This document shows, piece after piece, positions 2,391 through 3,026 of a stretch of DNA of 4,389 nt (position 1 is the first letter of the stretch; each line of letters begins with the position of its first letter). The translations under genes were made by a program, and so were the position numbers. Below the pieces are notes generated by a model. That model ran no database searches. It saw only the letters and a list, made by a program, of their open reading frames with translations, and had not been told where the DNA came from. This stretch comes from a virus (taxonomy: Duplodnaviria; Heunggongvirae; Uroviricota; Caudoviricetes): the IMG/VR virus record IMGVR_UViG_2698536511_000007. One strand, 5' to 3'.

Positions 2391-3026
2391 TTGGAGCTCC
2401 CAAACGGGGCAAACAAACTACTACTGCACTCTTGCTGTGCTCCATGTTCCGGTGAGGTGATGGAGGCGCTTCAGGCCTCGGGAATCGACTACACCATCTT
2501 TTTCTACAACCCGAACATTCATCCTCAGAAAGAGTATTTAATTCGTAAGGATGAGAATATTCGCTTTGCTGAACAACACGGCGTGCCGTTTATTGATGCT
2601 GATTACGACACAGACAACTGGTTTGAACGAGCCAAAGGAATGGAATGGGAGCCCGAACGAGGGATCCGTTGCACCATGTGTTTTGACATGCGTTTTGAGC
2701 GGACAGCGCTGTACGCCGCTGAAAATGGTTTCAGTGTGATCAGCAGTTCACTGGGCATTTCACGCTGGAAAAATATGCAGCAGGTTAACGACTGTGGGCG
2801 GCGAGCCGTCGCGCATTATCCGGGCATGGTGTACTGGGATTATAACTGGCGCAAGCAGGGCGGCTCGTCCCGTATGATTGAAATCAGCAAGCGCGAAAAA
2901 TTCTATCAGCAGGAATATTGTGGCTGTGTGTATTCTCTGCGCGATACCAATCTACACCGCAAATCTCAGGGACGCCCTCTTATCAAAATTGGTCAACTCC
3001 ACTACGGTAAAGAAGAGAAGGAGTGA
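2391..3026 (+). CDS. queH: QueH-like (DUF208) putative epoxyqueuosine reductase / Fe-S protein; true start probably lies in the N-run
   Basis: Frame open from the gap edge to TGA 3024-3026. It carries the motifs [12 protein letters not shown] near the N-terminus, CTMCFDMRF centrally and YCGCVYS near the C-terminus, which match the conserved cysteine signature I associate with the DUF208/QueH family. The TTG at 2391 is only the first in-frame start codon after the Ns. Confidence 0.65.

Follow-up and report, generated by a model that had tools for sequence, protein, structure and literature searches.

The 4,389-nucleotide stretch of virus record IMGVR_UViG_2698536511_000007 (the window, by which we mean this whole stretch) is a 4.4-kb part of the early-right region of a lambdoid prophage, and it carries on its plus strand, at 2385-3026, a gene of the QueH family of epoxyqueuosine (oQ) reductases. 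The explanation we favor, and consider fairly probable, is that the gene encodes a functional QueH that was captured together with its promoter from an Enterobacteriaceae chromosome, that it now travels as lambdoid cargo, and that it gives lysogens a cobalamin (vitamin B12)-independent conversion of oQ to queuosine (Q) beside the host enzyme QueG. The enzyme family and its reaction are already known; it is the setting, as cargo of temperate phages, that has been little noticed.

In QueH, cysteines bind a [4Fe-4S] cluster, and a single iron lies beside it. The enzyme acts on tRNA-Asn, tRNA-Asp, tRNA-His and tRNA-Tyr, where reduction turns the epoxide of oQ34 into the cyclopentene found in queuosine. 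Escherichia coli makes oQ-tRNA and is without de novo cobalamin synthesis. The same step, oQ34 to Q34, is carried out in E. coli by QueG (b4166), a cobalamin and [4Fe-4S] enzyme of unrelated fold encoded by a core gene, whereas QueH is cobalamin-independent and, here, accessory. That E. coli normally uses QueG had been assumed when the gene was first noted, and the assumption is borne out by the presence of queG in 5426 of 5426 complete E. coli genomes; every carrier of the prophage gene therefore has two non-orthologous enzymes for one step. Reduction of oQ in E. coli is described as cobamide-dependent in a passage of PMC5372724 that cites Frey et al. 1988, and the same is stated for E. coli and Salmonella together where Frey et al. 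1988 and Miles et al. 2011 are cited elsewhere. Pairs of QueG and QueH have been described in Staphylococcus aureus, Streptococcus pyogenes and Streptococcus suis, and the S. aureus pair has been interpreted as a response to cofactor availability.

The original prediction placed the open reading frame (ORF) at 2391-3026. Such a frame is present on the plus strand and encodes YCGCVYS and the other peptides quoted at the time, but the TTG at 2391 is not its start. The frame is open from 2385, the first visible base after a run of Ns, and TTG 2391 is the first start codon that follows the Ns. In a related prophage of E. coli FDAARGOS_944 (locus L001), positions 20001-20642 are 100% identical to the visible gene, with identity spanning 2385-3060 of the window, and the gene is annotated there as 'epoxyqueuosine reductase QueH' (WP_012421537.1). 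Because that coding sequence begins at an ATG 24 nt upstream of the point where our frame opens, giving a protein of 221 aa, TTG 2391 is Leu11 and the true ATG lies under the Ns. All 213 visible codons of the window gene are identical to this intact allele. Escherichia phage HannyBb carries the gene at 5956-6642 of its locus, annotated as hypothetical and with a start 21 nt upstream of the RefSeq start. The visible gene and its principal motifs, with cysteines numbered from the ORF that begins at TTG 2391, are as follows.

2385-3026, plus strand: visible part of queH, codons 9-221, with the TGA stop at 3024-3026
2433-2447, plus strand: CCAPC motif, Cys15 and Cys16 aligned with Thermotoga maritima Cys9 and Cys10, and Cys19 with Asp13
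2670-2681, plus strand: CTMC motif, aligned with T. maritima Cys87 and Cys90, invariant in 34 homologues
2919-2927, plus strand: CGC motif, aligned with T. maritima Cys169 and Cys171, invariant in 34 homologues

Membership in the QueH (DUF208) family, as originally proposed, holds on the profile check suggested at the time. The protein matches Pfam PF02677 (QueH) with an E-value of 1.5e-65 and 221 bits, against a curated cut-off of 23.5 bits, over profile positions 1-174 of 175; since the match runs from end to end, the ORF is not a chance frame. NCBIfam contained no model matching the queH product. By sequence, the only solved relatives are the entries for T. maritima QueH (HMMER, 7lc5, E-value 4.7e-22). 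Both the HMMER alignment to 7lc5 and a MAFFT alignment pair Cys15/16, Cys94/97 and Cys177/179 with T. maritima Cys9/10, Cys87/90 and Cys169/171, and all six are invariant in 34 homologues. The expectation that six cysteines would fall on the metal ligands was thus right as far as it went, all six Cys of the solved enzyme being aligned in the window protein; the count was one short, as the conserved metal-site cysteines number seven (CCAPC, CTMC and CGC). Cys135 is also nearly invariant. An Fe-S cluster like that of the family would be expected in the prophage protein.

The seventh cysteine, Cys19, occupies the position of T. maritima Asp13 and is common to all 33 close homologues aligned. Li et al. 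in 2021 reportedly described, for the T. maritima site, a [4Fe-4S] cluster next to which two Cys and this Asp hold an iron. Judging by their titles, the Protein Data Bank (PDB) entries of T. maritima QueH include a C9S mutant, a D13N mutant and a queuosine complex, so Cys9 and Asp13 are positions that the structure authors probed. A HMMER search of 1.84 billion representatives returned 4725 QueH relatives; among the best 150 of these, CC[AGS]PC occurs in 107 of the 111 that bear the motif and CCAPD in three. On these alignments, Cys in place of Asp13 appears to be the majority state among the relatives sampled and no peculiarity of the window protein. Several of the distant QueH-domain proteins are long fusions in which the QueH domain is C-terminal (P0125, 1398 aa; P0128, 761 aa; P0138, 824 aa).

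The fold comparison proposed for the protein was run as well, and it agrees. An AlphaFold2 model built from the 34 homologues has a predicted local distance difference test score of 75.6 and a predicted template modelling (TM) score of 0.76, with moderate confidence at residues 80-100 and 160-180. Its fold is Rossmann-like, of the adenine nucleotide alpha-hydrolase type, as in QueH. The top five PDB matches of the model are all QueH (target-normalized TM scores 0.74-0.76, E-values 6.5e-10 to 5.0e-09), led by 7lc5 and 7lc7 at 0.75, while TtuA, LarE, argininosuccinate synthase and other alpha-hydrolase-fold enzymes are far behind. Compared with T. maritima QueH (PF02677, IPR003828; PDB 7lc5, 7lc7, 9deu), the window protein is alike in its full-length profile match, its fold and the six cysteines, and its predicted reaction and substrate are the same. 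It differs in its overall sequence (about 31% identity), in the Asp13 position, in a basic C-terminal tail of 25-30 residues that extends past the solved chain, and in being prophage-borne and not at a chromosomal locus. On every computable feature the protein belongs with QueH, and we regard the identity of the enzyme as solid; from this identity it is predicted to convert oQ to Q in E. coli.

The gene is widespread. It occurs in 995 of 5426 complete E. coli genomes (about 18%), with 93-100% DNA identity and nearly always as one copy, and at least 80% of the gene length is present in 985 of the 995 carriers. Among the carriers are E. coli B, O157:H7, O104:H4 and the sequence type 131 (ST131) strains JJ1886 and EC958. 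IMG/VR holds 189 viral contigs with the gene, and the locus counts out of 80 given below refer to the best 80 of these 189. In 80 of 80 the queH reading frame is unbroken and 221 aa long, and just five protein variants are represented. A tblastn search of 50,697 phage records gave HannyBb as the sole convincing isolated phage with the gene. The other 24 matches resemble bacterial DNA and were discounted. They comprise unannotated short contigs named 'Bacteriophage sp.', 'Acinetobacter phage' entries of 330-380 kb, and Staphylococcus and Listeria entries with 33-36% identity.

The NCBI pipeline and RefSeq already name the prophage gene QueH. In PHROGs its family is phrog_3217, labelled 'unknown function', with a profile that begins at Met34 and is thus without CCAPC; because the profile starts at residue 34, many phage ORF calls for phrog_3217 are N-terminally truncated and lack that motif. 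A 2019 survey of deazaguanine genes in viruses reported no homologue of QueA, QueG or QueH (PMC6884629). No paper on a QueH carried by a prophage came out of our literature search on QueH or epoxyqueuosine in phages, prophages, lysogens or BL21.

A chromosomal source for the gene is indicated by its relatives outside phages. The closest, by amino acid identity, are in Scandinavium (92%), Kluyvera (91%) and Enterobacter (89-90%), and the Scandinavium, Kluyvera and three Enterobacter loci have no flank similarity to phage; in Scandinavium and one Enterobacter the non-phage neighbours are a DeoR regulator, GH28 and LysR, and SDR, DUF1543 and Hcp. The Erwinia gene (86%) lies between purL and glrK and that of Photorhabdus (about 80%) adjoins benE; these two neighbourhoods, and those of the homologues P0001 and P0008, were all chromosomal on inspection. 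Taken as a group, the chromosomal queH genes of Enterobacterales (Scandinavium, Kluyvera, Enterobacter, Erwinia, Photorhabdus, Providencia, Proteus) encode proteins of the same length with 79-92% identity that share YCGCVYS and other motifs with the prophage protein. Those inspected stand among non-phage genes, whereas the prophage gene stands in a lambdoid early operon beside hok/sok. In E. albertii the gene (99%) is flanked by the same phage DNA as in E. coli. The best reading of these comparisons is that the prophage queH is a host-derived cargo gene of chromosomal origin. Evolution of the QueH family is very slow, identity being 75-78% even to loci of Sphingomonas and Sphingomonadaceae. 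Near-identical Enterobacterales-type queH is also present in assemblies that bear the names Pseudomonas lundensis, Avacidaminococcus, Kingella and Bacillus subtilis (L040, L045, L047 and L086), probably through contamination or mislabelling.

The upstream DNA suggests that more than the coding sequence was captured. Whichever gene lies upstream, conservation extends over the ~80 nt that immediately precede the ATG, and an extended -10-like element, TGCTACACT, stands 34 nt before the ATG (L001 19934-19942) and is present in 80 of 80 IMG/VR loci. At the aligned position before the chromosomal queH of Scandinavium, Kluyvera and Enterobacter there is TGCTACAAT or a near variant, the homologous TGCTACA[A/C]T being found upstream of the gene in Scandinavium, Kluyvera and two Enterobacter. 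More broadly, the pattern TGnTAnnnT occurs in 21 of 77 chromosomal orthologues, mostly 33-40 nt upstream, and in none of 77 internal control windows. From this conservation we think that queH probably carries its own ancestrally conserved promoter and need not be served by the early operon alone, the native promoter having apparently been acquired by the phage along with the gene. A GC-rich hairpin without a T-tract, CCGCCCGAAAGGGCGG, lies in the spacer before queH in L001 (19869-19884); only this prophage type has it, and the O157, ST131 and B contexts lack it. A scan for promoters and terminators around queH gave nothing above shuffle expectation and, specifically, no terminator-like site between the queH stop and hok/sok. 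An Rfam search of L001 gave neither a riboswitch nor any other RNA before queH; the only match was sok, downstream.

Selection has acted on the protein since it entered prophages. Among five prophage alleles, the pairwise ratio of nonsynonymous to synonymous substitution rates (dN/dS) is 0.025-0.076, at synonymous divergence (dS) of up to 0.29, and because the ratio stays low over that divergence the QueH protein has been under purifying selection while diverging in prophages. The gene has also been retained where the phage around it has decayed. In E. coli B (L007, 1604390-1619044) queH is intact in a defective Qin-like prophage whose tail genes are cut by IS3, and the window itself, bracketed by copies of the insertion sequence IS600, is a second such remnant.

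Around queH, the window contains the following features.

1-124 and 4292-4389: IS600 sequence, 100% identical to features annotated 'IS3-like element IS600 family transposase'
125-802: O-like replication gene, 5'-truncated
809-1555, plus strand: DnaC-like helicase loader of the ydaV type (Pfam; NCBIfam PRK12377, E-value 8e-154; L001 annotation)
1570-1992, plus strand: DUF977/Ren-like gene (Pfam/NCBIfam; PHROG phrog_142, Ren-like; L001 annotation)
2049-2122, plus strand: first 24 codons of a 118-aa hypothetical ORF (phrog_1621; counterpart L001 19452-19808)
2123-2384, no strand: run of 262 N
3084-3259 and 3254-3409, plus strand: sok region and hok coding sequence of a hok/sok type I toxin-antitoxin system (Rfam RF01794, 117 bits; Pfam HOK_GEF, E-value 4e-23)
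3659-3946: 95-aa ORF
3985-4291: DUF1367/NinB-like gene, 3'-truncated

Two IS600 copies cut the O-like gene at ~125 and the DUF1367/NinB-like gene at ~4291. Relative to the intact 262-aa gene of L001, the O-like gene is a pseudogene: 2 nt are inserted in a run of A (331-332) and 10 nt are missing at 469, in addition to its truncation by IS600. With IS600 at both ends and these indels in the O-like gene, the locus in the window is a dead prophage fragment between two IS600 copies, as expected for a Shigella-like or enteroinvasive E. coli-like genome. An exact 40-mer that spans the boundary of IS600 and prophage does not occur in a collection of one genome per species. Eight related loci contain both flanks of the run of Ns. 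The flanks are 476 nt apart in seven of them and 1504 nt apart in one; 262 occurs in none, and the length of the run is uninformative. It may be a gap or mask of arbitrary length, or a deletion in this genome that possibly touches the queH promoter. Judged by the relatives, what lies under it is the remainder of the 118-aa gene, then a spacer of 168 nt with TGCTACACT, then codons 1-8 of queH. The 118-aa ORF, of a PHROG with unknown function, has a pattern of the type CxxxxxxxxxxxxxxxxCKIC, a possible zinc ribbon, and is upstream of queH in some prophages only.

The placement of queH in the early operon of a lambdoid prophage, read originally from the window alone, is confirmed by the gene order of annotated relatives: cro, ydaT, an O-like gene, the DnaC-like ydaV, DUF977, in some cases a hypothetical gene, queH, hok/sok, a NinB-like gene, an antiterminator and the lysis genes. 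The slot of queH is the same in four annotated contexts: DUF977 precedes it, in some cases with one small gene in between, hok/sok and the nin and antiterminator genes follow, and queH is co-oriented with cro, O and P. The sok/hok region of the window begins 58 nt past the queH stop, and hok/sok is downstream of queH in 80 of 80 IMG/VR loci. The two form a linked pair, and the linkage may stabilize the segment in decaying prophages. The space downstream of queH is a hot spot for cargo. In O157:H7 Z885 (L008 7851-9861), hok is replaced by a DNA cytosine methyltransferase and an NgoMIV-family restriction endonuclease, the first part of the sok region being kept, and between queH and hok/sok E. 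coli B and HannyBb have an insert of 380 bp. PADLOC returned no defense-system match for QueH or its neighbours. The tRNA genes of the related prophage L001 are for Ile, Arg, Thr and Gly, none of them a queuosine tRNA.

We propose a model in which a lambdoid phage captured queH and its promoter from the chromosome of an Enterobacteriaceae relative, and the captured gene would since have travelled as cargo, flanked by the replication genes on one side and the hok/sok-nin region on the other. Whether its host is a lysogen or a strain with nothing more than a prophage remnant, as in the window, QueH would act on host tRNA beside the universal, B12-dependent QueG. The gene would be available in the lysogen, through transcription from TGCTACACT in the repressed prophage, and would probably also be read through from the phage promoter pR on induction. 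As E. coli cannot make cobalamin de novo, completion of queuosine would become independent of external B12. In several respects this resembles the 'moron' or lysogenic-conversion cargo of lambdoid phages: a host-type gene stands between phage modules, there are signs of an autonomous promoter, and the slot accepts alternative cargo. It differs from that pattern in that no dedicated terminator was found for queH and the GC content, 0.48-0.49, is not distinctive; expression in the lysogen is what we infer.

Several points weigh against this proposal. The generic sigma-70 scan did not flag TGCTACACT, so the promoter call is one of sequence conservation, and no Shine-Dalgarno sequence is evident before the queH ATG. 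The scan found no terminator upstream of queH, which is co-oriented with the early operon, so that expression could be mainly on induction. The start codon and promoter of the window copy are under the Ns, and this copy is to that extent only presumed intact. The Asp13 of the crystallized enzyme is replaced by Cys, though this seems to be the majority state. Tight linkage to hok/sok could retain the segment irrespective of any benefit. A difference in phenotype between oQ-tRNA and Q-tRNA is not known to us, and the benefit of B12 independence, with the presumed gain in fitness, is accordingly hypothetical.

Of the other ways to explain the gene, the one that survives best, although we think it unlikely, is that queH is an auxiliary gene of the lytic cycle, expressed mainly from pR after induction, which keeps Q-tRNA complete for the synthesis of late proteins and does not serve the lysogen. 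Its orientation and position are those of an early gene, between replication and the nin/Q region, the scan from DUF977 to queH found no terminator, and HannyBb, an isolated and viable phage, carries it. A gene of this kind would not be expected to keep, in 80 of 80 loci, a promoter-like element inherited from chromosomal orthologues, nor to stay intact in prophages that cannot be induced, such as that of E. coli B and the IS600 remnant with its frameshifted O-like gene. Moreover, minutes of lytic expression would hardly alter a stable tRNA pool. A lytic role is in any case compatible with the lysogenic one that we favor, and the two are not exclusive.

Less probable still is that queH is a neutral passenger, kept by its linkage to hok/sok and by a recombination-prone cargo slot. 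The constant presence of hok/sok after queH in the IMG/VR loci fits such a history, as does the readiness of the slot to take other cargo (the NgoMIV-type restriction-modification genes of O157 Z885, the 380-bp insert of E. coli B and HannyBb), and queG is present in every host in any case. Hitch-hiking, however, does nothing to preserve codons, and the low dN/dS at the dS reached points to selection on the protein itself; every sampled copy is also intact.

We give very little weight to the idea that the protein has diverged or been repurposed, keeping the fold while losing oQ reductase activity or turning to another substrate through the Asp-to-Cys change. The alignment of T. maritima Asp13 with Cys19, and the depositors' choice of a D13N mutant, do imply that the residue matters. 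Cys is nevertheless usual at this position (107 of 111, against three with Asp) and common to the 33 close homologues, and the Cys-bearing homologues whose neighbourhoods were inspected (Erwinia, Photorhabdus, P0001, P0008) are all chromosomal.

A role in 7-deazaguanine DNA modification, in which the QueH-like protein would use phage DNA, host DNA or a free deazapurine as its substrate in an anti-restriction route, we reject as scarcely credible: we know of no epoxy-Q DNA base; the annotation of L001, read from the integrase as far as the baseplate genes, lists no partner (DpdA/TGT-like, FolE, QueC, QueD, QueE or QueF), in keeping with the originally noted lack of TGT/DpdA and QueC/D/E partners in the window, and none lies near queH in four other contexts (L002, L007-L009); and the protein is 89-92% identical to chromosomal QueH in non-phage neighbourhoods. 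Phages that modify their DNA with 7-deazaguanines are known (PMC6884629) and the fold is common to QueC-type enzymes, but no QueA, QueG or QueH turned up in the deazaguanine phages of that same survey. Among the three functions first suggested for the gene, then, B12-independent completion of queuosine fits best, and the option of deazaguanine DNA modification is without support.

Beyond the identity of the enzyme, it is the place of queH in phage biology that appears under-appreciated: the gene is phage cargo in 995 of 5426 E. coli genomes, yet it is of 'unknown function' in PHROGs and hypothetical in HannyBb. It is tempting to suggest, tentatively and as something that falls a little short of probable, that a coliphage lineage uses captured queH, under its own promoter, as a lysogenic-conversion factor, providing B12-independent queuosine in about one fifth of E. 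coli, including B/BL21, O157:H7, O104:H4 and ST131. If this is true, queH would be among the few genes of the Q-specific branch documented in phages, of which the 2019 survey had none in the viruses analyzed. Strains with queH would then differ from K-12 in their ratio of oQ to Q when B12 is scarce, as in minimal media or in competition in the gut, and the B12 that is spared would be available to other cobalamin enzymes. If the prophage QueH is active, E. coli B, O157 and ST131 would complete queuosine without B12 where K-12 cannot, and B-derived strains may accordingly differ from K-12 in the B12 dependence of queuosine. The finding would thus bear on studies of tRNA modification, on recombinant expression in B strains, and on the effects of prophages on host translation and B12 economy.

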